From an uncultured Chloroflexia bacterium (GTDB taxonomy: Bacteria > Chloroflexota > Limnocylindria > Limnocylindrales > CSP1-4): DNA of 64,000 nucleotides. The stretch lies in NCBI GenBank assembly GCA_963755115.1, contig CAVWIK010000003.1, forward strand, positions 359,327 to 423,326, written 5' to 3'. Positions 52,790 to 60,395 of this stretch are shown piece after piece. The notes below the pieces were generated by a model, which searched no databases, was not told where the DNA came from, and was given only the letters and a program-made list of their open reading frames with translations. Position 1 is the stretch's first letter. Every line of letters begins with the position of its first letter. A program made the position numbers and the translations under genes.

Positions 52790-54031
52790 TCAGACCCGCT
52801 CGAAGGCCATCGCCACGGACCCGCCGCCGCCGAGGCAGAGGGTCGCGAGGCCATAGCGGCCATCGCGTCGGGCGAGCTCGTGGAGGAGCGTCGCTACGAC
52901 CCTGGCGCCCGATGCGCCGACCGGGTGGCCGAGCGCGATCGCGCCGCCGTTCACGTTGACCTTGTCCCAGTCGAAGCCGAGCTCCCGGCCGTCGGCGAGG
53001 ACCTGCGCCGCGAACGCCTCGTTGATCTCGATGAGATCGAACGCCTCGATCGGCATCTCGATCCGATCGAGCAGCCGGCGGACGCCGTGGATCGGGGCGA
53101 GGAAGAGCCACTTGGCCTCGATATCGGCCTGGGCGTACCCGATGATCCTGGCCAGGGGCTTGAGGCCGTACCGCTCGACGGTCCGCTCGCTGACGACGAC
53201 CGTCGCCGCGCCGCCGTCCGTGATGCCGGGCACGTTGCCGGCCGTGGCGGTCGCGCTCGTCGCGTCGCCGCGATCATCGCCGTCCGGCAGGTCGAAGGCA
53301 GGCTTCAGTCGTGCGAGCGCCTCGATCGTCGTGTCCCGCCGTGGGCCCTCGTCGAGCGAGACGATGGTCTCGCGTCCCTTGGCGTCGCGAACCGTGACCG
53401 GGGCGATCTCGGCGTCGAACCGGCCCGCGTCCATGGCCGCGATCGCGTTCATGTGGCTGCGCAGCGCGAACGCGTCCTGGTCCTCGCGACTGATCTGCCG
53501 CGCGATGGCGACGCGTTCCGCGTGCGTGCCGACATGGCAGTCCTCGACCGCGCACCACAGCGCGTCGTGCACGGTCGCGTCGACGACGGCTCCGTCGCCG
53601 AGGCGATAGCCGAAGCGGGCACGCGGCAGGAGGTACGGCGCGCCGTTCATGCTCTCCATCCCACCGGCAACGACGACGTCGGCGTCGCCGGCACGGATCT
53701 CGGCGGCACCGAGCATGATCGCCTTCAGCCCCGAGCCGCAGACCTTGTTGATCGTCGTCGCGCTCGTGGTCACCGGCAGTCCACCGAGGATCGCCGCCTG
53801 GCGCGCGGGTGCCTGGCCGGCGCCGGCCTGGATCACCTGGCCCATGAGGACCTCGTCGACCGGGGTCTCGGCCGGCAGGCCGCTCCGCTCGACCGCCGCC
53901 CGGATCGCGACGCCGCCGAGCTCGACCGCCGGAACGCCGGCCAGCGCGCCACCGAACTTGCCGATCGGCGTCCGTGCCGCGCTGACGAGATAGACGCCGC
54001 CATTGCGGCCAGTTGGGGTCGTGTCATCCAT
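52790..54031 (-). CDS. phaA: Acetyl-CoA acetyltransferase (beta-ketothiolase)
   Basis: NKVCGSGL, NEAFA, GHPVGASG, CLGGG; within the PHA cluster. Confidence 0.92.
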   Translation of the reverse strand: MDDTTPTGRNGGVYLVSAARTPIGKFGGALAGVPAVELGGVAIRAAVERSGLPAETPVDEVLMGQVIQAGAGQAPARQAAILGGLPVTTSATTINKVCGSGLKAIMLGAAEIRAGDADVVVAGGMESMNGAPYLLPRARFGYRLGDGAVVDATVHDALWCAVEDCHVGTHAERVAIARQISREDQDAFALRSHMNAIAAMDAGRFDAEIAPVTVRDAKGRETIVSLDEGPRRDTTIEALARLKPAFDLPDGDDRGDATSATATAGNVPGITDGGAATVVVSERTVERYGLKPLARIIGYAQADIEAKWLFLAPIHGVRRLLDRIEMPIEAFDLIEINEAFAAQVLADGRELGFDWDKVNVNGGAIALGHPVGASGARVVATLLHELARRDGRYGLATLCLGGGGSVAMAFERV

Positions 54032-54100: not shown

Positions 54101-54862
54101 TTACGTGTACAGCCCGCCGTTGATCTCGATGACCTGACCGGTGATGTAGTTGCCGTTGGTGACGAGGTAGGCGACGAGCTGGGCGATCTCCTCCGGCTGC
54201 CCGAAGCGGCCCATCGGGACCTTCGCCAGGATCGCGGACCGGACATCCTCGGGCATGGCCGCGATCATCTCGGTCTCGATGAACCCGGGCGCGATCGCAT
54301 TGACCGTCACGCCCTTGCGGGCGACCTCGAGCGCGACCGACTTCGTGAAGCCGACGACGCCCGCCTTCGCGGCCGCGTAGTTGGCCTGGCCGAAGTTGCC
54401 GTGGAGGCCGACCACGGAGCTGATGCTGACGATCCGGCCGTATCCGGCCTGGACCATGTGCGGGAGGACACGCGAGGTCATGTGGAACATGCTCGTGAGG
54501 TTCGTCTGGATGACGGCATCCCACTCCTCGAACGTCATCTTGGCCATCGAGCGGTCGCGGGTGATGCCGGCGTTGTTGACCAGGACATCGATCTTGCCGA
54601 AATGCTCGGCGACGCTGTCGACGGCCGGTCCGATGGCCGGCGCATCGAGAAGGTCGAGGCCGAAGATGAACGCCTGGCCGCCGGACGCGACGATCTCGGC
54701 GGCCACCGCTTCGGCATCCGCCTTGTTGTCGTGCGCTGCCTCCCCGGGGAGATAGGCGACGGCCACGGAGGCGCCGTGTCGTCCGAGTTCGAGAGCGATC
54801 GCCCGGCCGATGCCGCGCGATCCGCCGGTGACGAGGCAGGACCTGCCGGTCATCTCAGCCAT
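54101..54862 (-). CDS. phaB: Acetoacetyl-CoA reductase
   Basis: GGSRGIG, NNAGITRD, GNFGQANYAAAKAG; adjacent to the thiolase and phasin genes. Confidence 0.85.
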   Translation of the reverse strand: MAEMTGRSCLVTGGSRGIGRAIALELGRHGASVAVAYLPGEAAHDNKADAEAVAAEIVASGGQAFIFGLDLLDAPAIGPAVDSVAEHFGKIDVLVNNAGITRDRSMAKMTFEEWDAVIQTNLTSMFHMTSRVLPHMVQAGYGRIVSISSVVGLHGNFGQANYAAAKAGVVGFTKSVALEVARKGVTVNAIAPGFIETEMIAAMPEDVRSAILAKVPMGRFGQPEEIAQLVAYLVTNGNYITGQVIEINGGLYT

Positions 54863-54941
54863 CGCTGGACCTCCTTGACTCGGCCGGACAGACGGGGCCG
54901 GCCGGCGATCGCCGGTCGACCCCGTGGTATCGGCCGCTTGT

Positions 54942-55334
54942 TCAGCGGGTGATGGCTTCGGTCGCCGACGTGGCTGCCTTGACGGCGGTCTGCCAGCTCT
55001 CGAGGGTCGCCTGCTGCGTGCGCTTGACCAGCGTCGAGAACTGCTCGACCGCCTGCCGGTTGCCCTTCACGCCCATGTCGAACAGGCGCAGGCCCGCTTC
55101 CATGGCGGCGTTCTGCGCTTCGAAGGCGGTCTTGATGGTCGCCTCGCTCTGGACCGACCAGGTGCCGAGCAGGTCGCGGCTGAGCGCGGCGCTGTCGTTC
55201 ACATAAGATCGCGCCGCCTCGAACGAGGCCCTCGCGGTCTCGGTGCCATTGCGTGCGGCCTGCGTCGCGATGCGACTTGCTTCCTTGACGGCAGCGGCTG
55301 CCGACTCGGGAATCTCGCTCGTCGTGGTGGACAT
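54942..55334 (-). CDS. phaP: Phasin-like PHA granule protein
   Basis: 130 aa, Ala/Thr-rich and helical, no Cys or His; AGGAGG RBS; position in the pha cluster. Confidence 0.65.
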   Translation of the reverse strand: MSTTTSEIPESAAAAVKEASRIATQAARNGTETARASFEAARSYVNDSAALSRDLLGTWSVQSEATIKTAFEAQNAAMEAGLRLFDMGVKGNRQAVEQFSTLVKRTQQATLESWQTAVKAATSATEAITR

Positions 55335-55388
55335 CGTCGTCCTCCTTCGGCTACTATCCAGCTGCCTCTATTTGCGCGACAACTCTAT

Positions 55389-55401
55389 GTGCATATTGCA
55401 C
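55389..55401. promoter_or_regulatory. Palindrome in the AT-richer divergent phaP/phaQ promoter region
   Basis: GTGCA-TAT-TGCAC, next to TAGGAT (55411-55416, +) and TTGACA (55422-55417, -). Confidence 0.45.
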
Positions 55402-55466
55402 TTAGTGTGGTAGGATTGTCAAGTGCCGCCGGCAAGGGCGGAGAAGAGGACCTCGAAAGACGCGCC

Positions 55467-56084
55467 ATGCCTGACCGCCGAACGACCACCGATGCCAGCG
55501 CCGCTCCCGATCGGCCGCGCCGTGCCCGCGCCGTCCGGCCACCTGGCGCGGCTGCGAGTCCTGCGCCGGAGCCCCTCGACGTCGATGGGCAGGCCCCCGC
55601 TGCCGACGGCCACGCCGCTGCTGACGGCCCCGGCCCCGCCGAGCCGGCCGAGCCGGCCGAGACGGCCGAGGCGGCCGAGGCGGCCGATGAGCGCGAGGCG
55701 TTTCCCGGCTGGCCACCGCGCGACTTCCTATCGCCGTTCGTCCTTCTCGCGGTCTCGCTCCAGCGGGCTCACGGCTACGCGATCGAGGACCTCCTGCGTG
55801 GCTTCGGCCTGTTCGGGATCACGATGAGCACCCTGTACCGCACCCTCCGGCAGATGGAGAAGGACGGCTTCCTCGAGTCGGTCTGGGAACCCGGTCCGAC
55901 CGGCCCGGCCCGCCGCATGTACACGATCACCGATGCCGGCGATGCCTGGCTGGAGAGCTCGGCGGCGATGCTCAATGTCTATCGCGAGACGATCGACCGG
56001 TTCTTCGGCCTGTATGACGCTGGCCCCGGCGCGAGGCGCCGCCAGCCCGACGAGCCGACTGGTGAAAAGGAGACACGGCAATGA
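55467..56084 (+). CDS. phaQ: PhaQ-like PadR-family PHB-responsive repressor with a low-complexity N-terminal extension
   Basis: [43 protein letters not shown] closely follows Bacillus megaterium PhaQ as I recall it. Confidence 0.8.
55638..55688 (+). repeat. 9-bp tandem repeat encoding (AEP/AEA)n in the PhaQ extension
   Basis: GCCGAG(C/A/G)CG x5 plus a partial unit. Confidence 0.75.
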
Positions 56085-56812
56085 CGAAGACCGGAGCAGC
56101 GGGCACCTCGACCGATCCATACGAGGTCTGGCGCGAGATGTACGACGCCAACGAGCGCGCCTGGAGCACGGCCCTCGACCAGGCGATGAACAGTCCGGAG
56201 TTCGGCGAATCGAGCGGGAAGATGCTCGAGACCATGCTCGCCGCACAGAAGGCCGTCCGCACCAGCATGCGCACCTTCCTCGAATCGATCAACGTGCCGA
56301 CCCGCGAGGACATCGCCGGGCTCGGCGAGATCGTGATCGGGGTCGAGGAGAAGGTCGACCAGGTCCTCGACCGCCTCGACGCCATCGAACAGGCCATCCG
56401 CGCCGTCCCCGCCGGTCCCCCGGGCCCGACGGGTGAGGCTGGCCCGATCGGTCCGGGCGGTCCGGTCGGTGCGGTCGGTCCTGCCGGTGCCATCGGTCCC
56501 GCGGGTCCTGCCGGTGCCGCTGGCCCCGTCGGTCCGGCCGGTGTCGTTGGCGCCGGGGTCCCGCCGGTGCCTGCTGGTCCCGTCGGTCCGGCCGGTGCCC
56601 CCGGTGTCGCTGGTGCCGTGGGTCCCGCCGGGCCCGCAGGACCCGCTGGCTCCGTCGCTCCGGCTGCGTCCGTCGGAGCCGCCGTGCCCGCCGCGCCGGT
56701 CGCCCGCACCACGACGGCCAAGCCCGCCGCTCCCGCCAAGAAACGCGCCCCGGCCAAGACCACGACTCGTGCCAAGCCCGCCAAGGGCACCAGCGCAAGG
56801 GGCATCCGATGA
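56081..56812 (+). CDS. phaR: Class IV PHA synthase subunit PhaR fused to a collagen-like domain and a Lys/Ala/Pro tail
   Basis: [12 protein letters not shown]....AMNSPEF...[18 protein letters not shown] matches the Bacillus PhaR pattern. ATGA-coupled to both phaQ and phaC. Confidence 0.82.
56414..56656 (+). repeat. Collagen-like Gly-X-Y repeat (16 + 9 triplets, interrupted by VPPVPA)
   Basis: [48 protein letters not shown] / [27 protein letters not shown]. Confidence 0.9.
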
Positions 56813-57879
56813 CGACCTCGCCGTGGCCGGAATGGCCGAACGCCGAGACCATGTGGTCATCGAACGAACGAGCGCTGGAGATGGCGCGAGCCCTGCTCAC
56901 GTCGCCGGACGCACCCGTCGGTCTGACCCCGAAGGAGCTCATCTGGCGCAAGAACAAGGCTCGCCTGTACCGCTACATCCGCTCCGAGCCGGCGACCCAC
57001 AAGACGCCGATCTTCCTGGTCCTACCGCTCATCAACCGGGCCTACATCCTTGACCTCCGTCCGGGAGCGAGCTTCGTCGAGTTCCTGCTCGGCGAAGGCT
57101 TCGACGTCTTCCTCATCGACTGGGGTACGCCGGGCGACGAGGATCGGGCGCTCGACGTCACGACGCTCATCACCCGCTACCTGCCGCGCGCCGCGAAGGC
57201 GATCCAGCGGACGACGGGTTCGGAGCAGATGACGGTCCTCGGCTACTGCATCGGCGGCACGTTGGCGGCCTGCTTCGCGGCCCTCAACCCGGACATCACG
57301 CGCAACCTCGTCCTGCTGACGGCCCCGCTCGACTTCGCGAACGCCGGGCAGTTCGGCCAGATGACGCGACGGGACGTCTTCCCGATCGATCAACTGGTCG
57401 ACACGTTCCCGATCGTGCCGGGACAGATGCCGGAGGTCGGTTCGAAGCTGCTCAACCCGATGTCCAGCTACGTGGGGACGTATCGCCAGCTCTGGGACAA
57501 GCTCGCCGATCCCAAGTTCGACGTCACCGCCTGGCAGGCGATGTACCGCTGGGTGAACGAAGGCGTGCCATTCGCCGGGGCGGCGTTCCGCCAGTGGATC
57601 GTCGAGTTCTACCAGGAGAACCGGCTGTCCCAGGACACGCTCGAGATGGATGGCCGCCCGGTGCGCCTGTCGGACATCCGCTGCCCGCTGCTCAACATCG
57701 CCGCGAGTCGCGACCAGATCGCGCCCCGGGCGACGACGAATATCGCGACGGAGCGCGTCAGCAGCGACGACGCGTCAGAGATCCTCGTCGAGGGCGGCCA
57801 CGTCGGGATCGTCGTCGGCCGGAATGCCAGCCAGAACCTCTGGCCCAAGGTCGGCGTCTGGCTCGCCGAGCACGACTGA
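56809..57879 (+). CDS. phaC: PHA synthase catalytic subunit, class III/IV size (356 aa)
   Basis: [32 protein letters not shown], lipase-like box GYCIGG, catalytic D (RDQI) and H (GGHVG). Confidence 0.93.
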
Positions 57880-57895
57880 CCCGACCGACCGGAGG

Positions 57896-60193
57896 CTAGG
57901 CGACCAGCGGGACCGGCGTCCCGATCAGCTCGGCGAGCCGCTGCCCGTCGGGCTGGACCAGTTCGGCGACCCGTGCCGGGTCGACGTCCGCGACGATGAT
58001 CTGGCCGATCTCGGTCCGAACGACCGTGAAGATGCCCAGCTCGTGCATGCGCTGCGTCTGGAGCCGGTTGTCCTCGGTCGGGGTGAGGTAGTGGAGGGAC
58101 GCGGCCCCGTAGCGGTGGATCAGGAAGAGCTGCGTGAGCGTCATCAGCCGGCGCCGGCGGATCGACGGCTCGGTGTGCTGGTCCCGGATCGAGAGGATGC
58201 TCCGACCCCGCCGGTCGACGATGCTCGCGAAGATCACGTCGGCCAGGGGCTCCTCGGAGTCGTCGAGGACGCGGAGCTCGAGCAGATCGGAGCCCGCGGT
58301 GTGGGGTCGCAGCTCGACGCGGATCGTCCCCGGCCGCTCCCAGCGGGTCGACCAGGCGGCGAGCCAGCCCTCGAGCAGCCTCGTCGGGACCTCCGTCTGG
58401 ACGAGGTGCTGATGCTGCGTCGAGCCCTTGCCCATGGCCTTCGTCGCGGCGGTCCGTCCCGACGCGGCCATCAGCGCGGCATCGAGCCGGTCGCCGCCGA
58501 CGAGGGACTGCGGGGTCCGATACGGCGATTCGAGCAGCCGGAACTTGCGCTGGAGCCGGGCGAGGGCGAGCATGCCGTCCTCGCGTAGGGCCCTCGTGAA
58601 CTCCTCGGCGGCGAGGCCGTCGATCTGGTGGCCGCCGTACGTGATGAAGTTGAACACGAACCCGAGCTTGCCGAGGTCCTCGGGGAACCGCCGCATCTCC
58701 TCGTCGCTCAGGCCGGTGGTGTCCCAGTTGAACGAGGGCGAGAGGTTGTACGCGAGCATCTTGTCCGGGTACTCGGCATGGATCGCCTCCGCGAAGCGTC
58801 GCGCGTCCTCGAGATCGGCGGTCTTGGTCTCCATCCACAACAGGTCGGCGAACGGCGCCGCAGCCAGCGACTTGGCGATCGCGTAGTCGATCCCGCCCTG
58901 GACCTGGAAGTAGCCGTCCGGGGTCTTGGGCAGCTCAGGATCCCAGGTGACCCGGATGCCGAGCTCGTCGGCCTTCGCCCGGATCTCCGAGAAGGACGCG
59001 CGACGCGCGAAGGCACGCCATGCCTCGAGCGCCATGTCGAACCGCTCGCCCTCGGCGATGCGGTCCTCGAGGATGTCCGCGACGGCCTCGCCATAGGTCA
59101 TGAGGCCGGCCTCCGCCTGCCAGGTCTCGGCGTAGCGGGTGTCGATCGCGTCGAGCAGGTGCTCGGTCGGGGTGCCGGGCTCGGCCGCGCGGATCGCCTC
59201 GGCGTTCCGTTCGATCACCGTCATGAGCCCGACCTGGACGAGCCACGCCGTGGCGCGCTGCATCTCGGCCTCGGGCACCGCGAACAGGAGGTGGCCCCGG
59301 ATGTCATCGAGGCCGAGGTCGAACAGCGCCTTCTGGATCGCGAGGAAGGCCACCCGGTAGCTCGGCAGCCCGAGGTTCGTCGCCCCGAGGATGAACGGCT
59401 GATCCCGCTCGTCGCCGCGGTCGTCGAGGAACGTCGCCGCCTCGGCGTCGGTCCGCGCGACGATGATCCCGGGCACTCGCATGATGTCGAGCTGGAAGCG
59501 CGCCGCGTTGAGCCGCTTGTTCTGCTCGTCCTGGGCGACGAGGACCTTGCCGCTCTGGTGCCCGCACTTCTTGGCGCCCGGCTTCTGGTCCTCGATGTGG
59601 TAGCCGGGCACGCCGACCTCGACGAATCGACGGACGAGGTTCCGGACGTGCGCATCGCCGCCATGCCCCGTGTCGGCGTCCGCGATGATGAATGGGCGGA
59701 AGTCGACCTCGGGGGTGGTCCGCCGTCGCTCCTCGGTCATCTGGGACCGGGCGAAATACTGGTTCTTGTCGGCCGCGAGCAGCGCACGGACGAGGCCGGC
59801 TGCCTCGTCGGGGACCTGTCCGAGCGGGTAGCTCGCCAGGTCGGGCCCGGGATCCTCCGCCTTCGACCCCTTCGCCGAGGTCGCCCAACCGCCGAGGTAG
59901 ATGGCCTCGATGCCGAGCCGCTTCATGACGACCGCCTGGCCCGGGGAGTACGGCCCGAAGGTCGTGATCTGCCGGCCTTCGGCGAACAGCTCGCGGAGCC
60001 GGGCATGGAACGCCTCGGCGGCCGTCCGGGCGACCGTGTAGTCGGGCTGGATCGTGCCCTGCTGGGCGGCGACCTCACGCGCGGTGTGGAGTCGCACGAT
60101 CCCCTCGAACCGGGGCTGGGCGAACCACTCGCGAGCGGCGTCGACCTGGATCTCGAACGGATCCGCGGTGGTGGGCATGGCAAGCGCGCTCAT
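57896..60193 (-). CDS. aceA: Long-form isocitrate lyase (mycobacterial ICL2 type, about 765 aa)
   Basis: KKCGHQ catalytic motif, [23 protein letters not shown], and a C-terminal domain RRLMTL..LIHRY..HY.TPT.DN resembling ICL2. Confidence 0.93.
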
Positions 60194-60203
60194 CGGTCGG
60201 TCG

Positions 60204-60395
60204 TCACTCGTTGGAATGGTCCCGCGAGCAGTCGTCGGGGCACTCGCAGTCGGCCCAGAAGCTGTACGGGTAGGTGCCGCCCCCGACGGAGGTGCGCTCG
60301 TCGTCCGCTGTCCGACCGGTATCGAGCCCATGTGCCGGCGTCGCCATGGCGAACGGCGTCGGGACGGGGTGTCGGGGATCCGGGGTGTATTCCAT
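60204..60395 (-). CDS. Small Cys/His peptide (63 aa) directly upstream of aceA
   Basis: ATG 60395 to TGA 60204, ending [18 protein letters not shown]; 10-nt gap to the aceA ATG. Confidence 0.55.

Follow-up and report, generated by a model that had tools for sequence, protein, structure and literature searches.

A PHA synthase partner subunit with a collagen-like tract and a basic tail in an uncultured Chloroflexia bacterium

Collagen-like proteins are known in bacteria as parts of surfaces, spore coats and phage fibres. In another context, granules are tethered to the nucleoid by PhaM, PhaF, PhaH and AlgP, whose C-terminal regions bind DNA and are histone-like in PhaM, PhaF and AlgP; PhaM also binds and activates PhaC, the catalytic subunit of polyhydroxyalkanoate (PHA) synthase (PMC13052382, PMC9049629, PMC3556143). 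The oligomerisation zipper of PhaF lies between its two functional ends (PMC9049629, PMC13052382). Here, we focus on phaR, a gene located in a stretch of 64,000 nt (hereafter the window) of contig CAVWIK010000003.1 from an uncultured Chloroflexia bacterium (assembly GCA_963755115.1). By homology, its product is the non-catalytic PhaR partner of a two-component PHA synthase of the class IV-like, Bacillus type, and it carries a collagen-like Gly-X-Y tract followed by a basic tail, an architecture that appears undescribed. An earlier reading of this DNA (the original prediction) had stated that no described collagen-containing PHA synthase was known to it; this agrees with the open-access literature, in which no paper was found on collagen-like PhaR or PhaE, or on PHA metabolism in Limnocylindria, though databases already label the domain pair.

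Profile matches and direct reading divide the PhaR product into a PhaR-type N-terminal domain, a Gly-X-Y tract and a Lys/Ala/Pro tail. The gene and its parts are the following.

56081..56812, + strand: phaR, encoding the partner subunit of the PHA synthase, with its Gly-X-Y tract and basic tail; intact open reading frame of 243 residues
56067..56072, + strand: AAGGAG Shine-Dalgarno sequence, 8 nt before the phaR ATG, read from the sequence
56114..56410, + strand: N-terminal domain of the PhaR type (residues 12-110), predicted to form three helices (TIGR02132 and AlphaFold2)
56303..56407, + strand: last helix of this domain, residues 75-109, 4.5 heptads; top block of the AlphaFold2 model, with a predicted local distance difference test score (pLDDT) of 87-94
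56414..56557, + strand: Gly-X-Y run 1, 16 unbroken triplets, residues 112-159 (direct count, PF01391)
56558..56575, + strand: interruption VPP-VPA, residues 160-165, two Gly-less triplets in register (direct count)
56576..56656, + strand: Gly-X-Y run 2, 9 triplets, residues 166-192 (direct count, second Pfam Collagen stretch)
56657..56809, + strand: basic tail rich in Ala, Pro, Lys and Thr (residues 193-243) with a net charge of +11, including RAKPAKG

The three-part architecture proposed in the original prediction, namely, a PhaR domain with a coiled coil, a collagen-like tract and a basic, PhaF-like tail, is real, as judged from TIGR02132, PF01391 and the charge of the tail. Its count of 25 Gly-X-Y triplets within residues 112-192 corresponds to the 16 and 9 of the two runs, and the intact frame with ATGA coupling on both sides can be read directly from the sequence. 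One ATGA overlap, at 56081-56084, links the stop of a phaQ-like gene to the phaR ATG, and the other, at 56809-56812, links the phaR stop to the phaC ATG.

A search of 5.8 billion proteins for relatives of this PhaR yielded 1983 matches, and the architecture was read in the 120 best. Among these, 118 carry 9 to 23 triplets (median 18), two show a break, and nearly all bear precomputed Pfam Collagen and PHA_synth_III_E labels, some sources already naming them so. The search for PhaR or PhaE joined to collagen that the original prediction had suggested thus found the same architecture in 118 of the 120 best relatives; it is not unique to the window but a family trait of Limnocylindria PhaR. In all 118 homologues, the tract begins at a constant distance behind the last helix, its first Gly lying +39 or +37 from an invariant PTRED motif. 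More than 100 independent assemblies (JGI, ENA, NCBI and Logan) share the architecture, which rules out an artefact in kind; this argument does not extend to the copy number and the VPPVPA interruption of the window assembly.

With regard to distribution, 66 loci were collected from species-representative genomes. Nearly all of them lie in metagenome-assembled genomes (MAGs) labelled Limnocylindria/Limnocylindrales or 'uncultured Chloroflexia', Bacillaceae forming a distant outgroup. The PhaR of locus L013, labelled 'Solirubrobacterales', is identical to that of the Chloroflexi MAG L016, and L004, labelled 'Verrucomicrobiia', is placed by the tree among Gly-X-Y forms. The PhaR domain is patchy: of 301 genomes sampled from the class, 17 have it, as do 11 of 57 genera and, within the genus to which the window belongs, about 4 of 24 genomes. 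Within more distant PhaR-like clusters, at least five triplets were found in just 2 of 150 representatives, both close relatives, which points to the collagen-like module as an innovation of one lineage.

The strongest feature of the tract is the constancy of its three-residue period. The first seven triplets align without gaps in 33 species, and at each Gly position Gly is found in 33 of 33, encoded by all four of its codons, with X and Y residues varying freely around it. Over the homologue tracts, position X is occupied by Pro (53%), Ala (18%) and Arg (14%), and position Y by Ala (42%), Thr (22%), Lys (11%) and Pro (4%). At the DNA level, the program TRF finds repeat periods of 9, 27 and 54 bp, the copies of which have diverged (64-84% matches). 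The invariant Gly with its codon turnover, the asymmetry between X and Y, and the divergence of the DNA repeats together indicate purifying selection on phased Gly, and not recent slippage alone. Such a selected periodicity is what a collagen triple helix would be expected to leave in the sequence, without amounting to proof.

Among the 66 loci, the region that follows the N-terminal domain takes three forms. The first consists of 7 to 29 uninterrupted Gly-X-Y triplets and a basic tail. The second is the basic tail alone, as in L024, L030, L033, L034 and L055. In the third, found in L037-L044, the last coiled-coil segment is repeated in tandem, two or three times, ahead of a basic tail, e.g. 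AKIDRIAKRLDTIERAVRSRPAEV, with a unit of about 24 residues containing R-L-D-T-I-E (for instance, L037:4001-4696). In a tree of the N-terminal domain (108 columns, poorly resolved), the coiled-coil repeats form two well-supported separate clades that differ in their repeat sequences, and spacer-less forms are nested among Gly-X-Y forms. In P0089, one of the proteins nearest to the window PhaR by its N-terminal domain, a duplicated helix and an Ala/Lys tail replace Gly-X-Y. The original prediction had reckoned that homologues having just a variable Pro/Ala linker would speak against a collagen; instead, 118 of the 120 best hold Gly-X-Y, and the alternative spacers are coiled-coil segments. Read across these variants, the near-constant element is the basic tail, not the collagen, and the varied element a putative rod-forming oligomeric spacer.

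The N-terminal domain matches TIGR02132 (phaR_Bmeg) over residues 12-101 with 72.8 bits (E 3.3e-20; model positions 8-97 of 189). The equivalog cut-off, 148.4 bits, is not reached: only the front half of the model aligns, since the window protein has other sequence in place of the C-terminal half of Bacillus PhaR. At the level of the domain, the profile match makes homology to class IV PhaR clear, less so equivalence over the full length; these 110 conserved helical residues correspond to the portion of PhaR/PhaE that goes with PhaC. The PhaE models score weakly on the window PhaR (PF09712, 21.3 bits for a cut-off of 25.7; TIGR01834, 19.7 bits for a cut-off of 154.95), and of the approximately 310-325 positions that they span, just the final 70-90 or so match. 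From a 64-sequence alignment, in which 37 columns of the domain are invariant, AlphaFold2 predicts helices at residues 13-36, 41-69 and 75-108 with pLDDT of about 80-94. A Foldseek comparison of this model with the PDB gave no match with E < 1, a small helical domain being uninformative, and a profile search of PDB sequences found no solved relative of the PhaR domain, its matches being collagens and BclA in the Gly-X-Y part only.

The last of these helices, predicted with confidence and showing a heptad pattern, directly abuts the Gly-X-Y tract. Its a and d positions are all occupied by Ile, Leu or Val (I78, L81, V85, V88, V92, V95, L99, I102, I106 and V109). Within it, R98-L-D-A-I-E103 fits the pattern R-h-x-x-h-E, which is kept at the same position in nearly all Limnocylindrales PhaR, is absent from Bacillaceae PhaR, and recurs in every duplicated unit of the coiled-coil-repeat variants.

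The Gly-X-Y tract of the window PhaR is recognised by PF01391 (34.5 bits; gathering score, 27.2), and its NCBIfam and PDB matches are SclB, Lcl and BclA. When the second copy of the 54-bp repeat is compared with the first, it proves to have lost one base close to a run of G and, 16-17 nt further on, to have gained a T (about 56553-56572). The stretch between these two indels is read in a shifted frame, hence VPPVPA, whereas the repeat's own frame gives GPA GAA and would yield 27 uninterrupted triplets. The break is either a real compensated frameshift pair or a pair of assembly errors; if real, it would argue that the downstream triplets and the tail are needed. Frameshifts inside the tract, uncompensated ones, also occur in the related long-read MAG loci L005, L010, L017, L020, L031, L036 and L050. 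Two of these at first sight contain a natural PhaR-collagen-PhaC fusion (L010:4001-5635 and L050:4001-5644), which was rejected, as the basic tail and stop are present in the +1 frame and the fusions are single frameshifts. L036 too shows an apparent single PhaR-Gly-X-Y-PhaC open reading frame, the +1-frame check having covered L010 and L050.

In agreement with the original prediction, the tract is rich in GGT codons, unlike the neighbouring genes: its 27 Gly codons are 18 GGT, 6 GGC, 2 GGG and 1 GGA, compared with 13 GGT among 187 Gly codons (7%) in six neighbours. The G+C content at third codon positions (GC3) is 0.63 in the tract versus 0.92 in the N-terminal domain (about 0.91); where GC3 falls, codon positions 1 and 2 of the tract are almost wholly G/C. 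In homologue tracts, the counts are GGA 176, GGG 163, GGC 99 and GGT 35, whereas GGC makes up 84 of 156 Gly codons in the homologue N-terminal domains. The turn away from GGC in the tract is thus family-wide, and the preference for GGT is peculiar to the source genome. Throughout that genome, a following Pro codon lowers the share of GGC among Gly codons from 56% to 34% and raises that of GGT from 10% to 17%. A foreign origin of the GGT bias was rejected, given that the homologues also avoid GGC in the tract and that the genome itself lowers GGC before Pro. We read the bias as a probable effect of local composition or context, amplified by duplication of a GGT-rich unit. The homologous tracts of L001-L062 contain many A/T-ending codons (GGA, GCA, GCT, ACA) in genomes whose GC3 is otherwise near 0.9.

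The 51-residue tail is of low complexity, rich in Ala, Pro, Lys, Thr and Arg, and contains PAKK/AKPA motifs. Irrespective of the spacer, almost every member of the family ends in a clearly basic C-terminus, the outliers being L049, L056 and L063 with tail charges of 0 to +2. In all homologues that carry Gly-X-Y, the extension as a whole has a net charge of +5 to +22, and in most of them the tract itself is cationic and K/R-rich, with +5 to +11 per chain. Five homologues, including the window PhaR, have an uncharged tract, and their tails are the most basic, at +8 to +11 versus mostly +2 to +7 elsewhere. This split is significant in a Mann-Whitney test; the Spearman correlation between Gly-X-Y charge and tail charge across homologues is not (rho -0.22, p 0.27). 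The rigid stalk of the original prediction needs qualifying in this respect: a rod may stand, but since most homologue tracts are cationic, the Gly-X-Y part may belong to the binding surface rather than form an inert stalk.

Elsewhere in the source genome, A/K/P-rich tails are found on the ribosomal proteins S20, L21 and L15 and on a probable rRNA methyltransferase, all named by sequence with no family search. These tails support nucleic-acid binding in general and do not single out DNA. Open reading frames with A/K/P tails lie in this genome at C2 (-) offsets 1696905-1697865, C3 (-) offsets 809119-809926, C2:1236355-1237555 (+) and C2:1206542-1209062 (+), the minus-strand offsets being counted from the end of the reverse-complemented contig. 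Some databases name PhaR homologues 'ribosomal protein L12E/...', owing to the Ala/Lys/Pro extension.

We can propose a role for this architecture, which we favour with about even confidence: an oligomeric, rod-like spacer and a polyanion-binding tail, with DNA as the polyanion, would be built onto the synthase subunit and act in the manner of PhaM and PhaF. The coiled coil of the last helix would oligomerise PhaR, probably as a trimer, and align the chains where Gly-X-Y starts. The 25 to 27 triplets would then zip into a collagen triple helix of the bacterial, hydroxyproline-free type, with a flexible point at VPPVPA and a length of about 23 nm (81 residues x 0.286 nm per residue). The Lys/Ala/Pro tails, each carrying +11, would bind a polyanion, nucleoid DNA being the likeliest because the histone-like tails of PhaF and PhaM, which are analogous, bind it for polyhydroxybutyrate (PHB) granules. 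Synthase and nascent granule would in this way be kept a defined distance from the nucleoid to which they are attached, allowing control over how many granules form, how they are spaced and how they are inherited. Tandem coiled-coil copies, or the tail alone, would fill the same role in sister species, and in most homologues the polycationic collagen-like rod may itself lie along the polyanion. With regard to the combination of catalysis and positioning in the original prediction, PhaR is the non-catalytic partner. We infer the triple helix, the trimeric state, the rod of about 20 nm and the nucleoid tethering from sequence features. A more demanding version, in which a cytoplasmic triple helix forms part of the enzyme complex, with a trimeric PhaR, nucleated by its coiled coil, whose rod of about 15-25 nm and tails bind DNA, display up to three PhaC and seed or space granules along the nucleoid, is possible but, in our view, rather doubtful. 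If it were true, the interchange with coiled coils in sister species would be a natural experiment indicating that rod length or valency is selected, and not chemistry.

Several points weigh against this proposal. AlphaFold2 leaves residues 112-243 unstructured (pLDDT < 50), as expected since a single chain was modelled. The two Gly-to-Val positions in the middle of the window tract would locally break a triple helix, and the tract is dispensable in several related species. No prolyl hydroxylase (prolyl 4-hydroxylase, PF13640) was found in the source genome, which is about 80% complete; bacterial collagens form without this enzyme. R-h-x-x-h-E, reportedly described by Kammerer et al. in 2005 as a trimerisation motif of short coiled coils, serves here as a lead and not as a test. 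PhaC enzymes work as dimers, which makes no simple fit with a trimeric partner. The higher tail charge of homologues with an uncharged tract (Mann-Whitney p 0.0013) is uncorrected for phylogeny. Finally, what the tail binds could be something other than DNA, such as RNA, polyphosphate or the surface of the granule.

Other explanations of the extension have to be considered. The Gly-X-Y part could be a flexible, polyproline-II-like linker of low complexity that acts as an entropic spacer, its three-residue period being a by-product of duplications of 9, 27 and 54 bp. The TRF periods agree with such an origin, as do the range of 7 to 29 triplets among species, the species without a tract, the tolerated VPPVPA break of the window copy and the lack of structure in the AlphaFold2 monomer. 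However, a disordered linker needs neither a fixed Gly, nor a fixed start, nor an X/Y asymmetry, whereas Gly is retained at every third position in 100% of the 33 species despite complete codon turnover, the tract starts at a fixed point and shows almost no out-of-register breaks in 118 homologues, and its X and Y compositions differ strongly. Moreover, the spacers that replace it are coiled-coil segments, which are oligomeric rods too, and not random Pro/Ala linkers. We consider the linker explanation rather unlikely. A misassembly or annotation artefact of a GC-rich region of low complexity, affecting the repeat or the frame, could draw on the seven frameshifted long-read loci and on the resemblance of VPPVPA to two compensating 1-nt indels. 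Yet the frame is open from an ATG preceded by a Shine-Dalgarno sequence to a stop overlapping the phaC start, and the architecture recurs in more than 100 independent assemblies. At most the local detail of VPPVPA could be in error, and we regard an artefact as highly improbable.

It could also be asked whether the rod and tail form a cationic coat of the granule, repelling coalescence as a phasin would, or bind polyphosphate or RNA rather than DNA. The net positive extension of every Gly-X-Y homologue would suit this, and so would the K/R-rich composition of most tracts and the similar tails on RNA-binding ribosomal proteins of the source genome; in addition, AlgP positions polyphosphate granules using a PhaF-like tail (PMC13052382). 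A separate phasin-like gene is, however, already conserved in the cluster, and the documented role of such tails on the PHA proteins PhaF and PhaM is DNA binding (PMC9049629, PMC13052382). The evidence does not discriminate among the possible polyanions, and we regard a coat, or a target other than DNA, as a fairly improbable alternative to tethering by an oligomeric spacer and a DNA-binding tail.

The gene lies in a PHA cluster, the other members of which are listed below.

56809..57879, + strand: phaC, catalytic subunit of a class III/IV-type PHA synthase, 356 residues (TIGR01836, 325 bits; PhaC_N; Abhydrolase_1)
55740..56084, + strand: phaQ-like repressor of the PadR family, nearest to PhaQ, a repressor that responds to PHB; conserved part, start uncertain (TIGR02719 repress_PhaQ, E 1.4e-22; PF03551)
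54942..55334, - strand: phasin-like gene, 130 residues (weak Phasin_2 match, E 0.016)
54101..54862, - strand: phaB-like acetoacetyl-CoA reductase of the short-chain dehydrogenase/reductase type (adh_short, E 7e-60; syntenic)
52790..54031, - strand: phaA-like thiolase (Thiolase_N, Thiolase_C; syntenic)

The phasin-like, phaB-like and phaA-like genes are divergent from phaQ-phaR-phaC. Across the 66 loci, phaC is found directly 3' of phaR in nearly all, the phaQ-like gene lies upstream in most, and the whole cluster is syntenic in nearly all; the phasin-like gene is kept in position, with 60-79% identity across loci. By its profile matches and gene order, the window holds a complete Bacillus-type two-component PHA cluster, phaA-phaB-phasin / phaQ-phaR-phaC. 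Upstream of the conserved PadR domain, the frame of the phaQ-like gene stays open for about 270 further codons (54924-55740, + strand), which include a stretch rich in Ala, Pro and Glu and overlap the phasin gene on the opposite strand. Directly downstream of phaC, and convergent with it, an isocitrate lyase family protein of 811 residues is encoded at 57896-60331 on the minus strand (PF00463, E 9e-116), placing a glyoxylate-shunt enzyme beside the acetyl-CoA-consuming PHA cluster.

Other collagen-like proteins are present in the lineage. The source genome encodes one, at C2:1906308-1906580 (-), which Pfam Collagen matches with 77 bits. It is membrane-anchored by an N-terminal helix, continues with about 24 triplets of the type (GDPGEPGAK)n and closes with a globular C-terminal part; unlike PhaR, it is acidic/zwitterionic and belongs to the common extracellular kind. 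Larger collagen-like open frames of 280-1024 residues were noticed at G015:C3:469514-470880, G014:C204:1450-2451, G028:C6:54638-56056 and G010:C10:108672-109204. These genomes belong to the same genus and order as the source genome, which makes Gly-X-Y proteins a recurrent feature of this lineage.

The interest of the window PhaR is that its architecture is conserved, unexpected and directly testable; it is limited since the key structural and binding claims are inferred. A conserved collagen-like tract within a cytoplasmic enzyme subunit would add to the roles known for the triple helix, and it would provide protein engineers with a small hydroxyproline-free collagen having a built-in nucleation domain. 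The natural variants, with 7 to 29 triplets, coiled-coil repeats or the tail alone, form a set in which the effects of spacer length and charge on granule number and size could be followed, these being a practical variable in bioplastic production.

Compared with known systems, the window PhaR resembles the class IV PhaR of Bacillus/Priestia megaterium (TIGR02132), with which it shares a homologous helical N-terminal domain, an adjacent, co-translated PhaC of about 355 residues and a PadR repressor of the PhaQ type. It differs in its host, a Chloroflexota instead of the Bacillota, and in what follows the domain: in Metabacillus PhaR (L064) an acidic linker and a further helix come next, whereas the window protein has 25 Gly-X-Y triplets and a basic tail. 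Like PhaM of Cupriavidus necator, which has PAKKA motifs, and PhaF of Pseudomonas putida, it would be a synthase- or granule-bound protein with a Lys/Ala/Pro-rich C-terminus. Unlike PhaF, it has a phasin-domain score far below the cut-off (TIGR01837, E 0.024, 14.7 bits versus 94.7) and no PF05597 match; unlike both PhaM and PhaF, it bears the tail on a synthase subunit of the obligatory type, beyond a collagen-like tract absent from both, and no homology to PhaM has been shown.

By its sequence the protein counts as collagen-like. With Scl1 and Scl2 of Streptococcus, BclA of Bacillus and Lcl of Legionella, it has in common a long hydroxyproline-free (Gly-X-Y)n with Pro mainly in X and Ala, Thr or Lys in Y. 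As in bacterial collagen-like proteins, the repeat number varies, and as in Scl, a non-collagenous helical domain lies directly N-terminal. While Scl, BclA and Lcl are surface, exosporium or secreted proteins, the window PhaR lacks a signal peptide or anchor and would be a cytoplasmic enzyme subunit. A more remote parallel is offered by ColQ, of the collagen-tailed acetylcholinesterase, and by class A scavenger receptors, in which a coiled-coil or proline-rich attachment module, joined to an enzyme or receptor, is followed by a collagen helix, and basic clusters of this helix bind a polyanion, giving anchoring at a distance; these proteins are eukaryotic, extracellular, hydroxylated and unrelated in sequence, and the analogy serves as a lead. 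In other respects, where Cupriavidus, Pseudomonas and Caulobacter use the separate proteins PhaM, PhaF and PhaH, the comparison suggests that uncultured soil Chloroflexota have built a granule tether into the synthase subunit itself.

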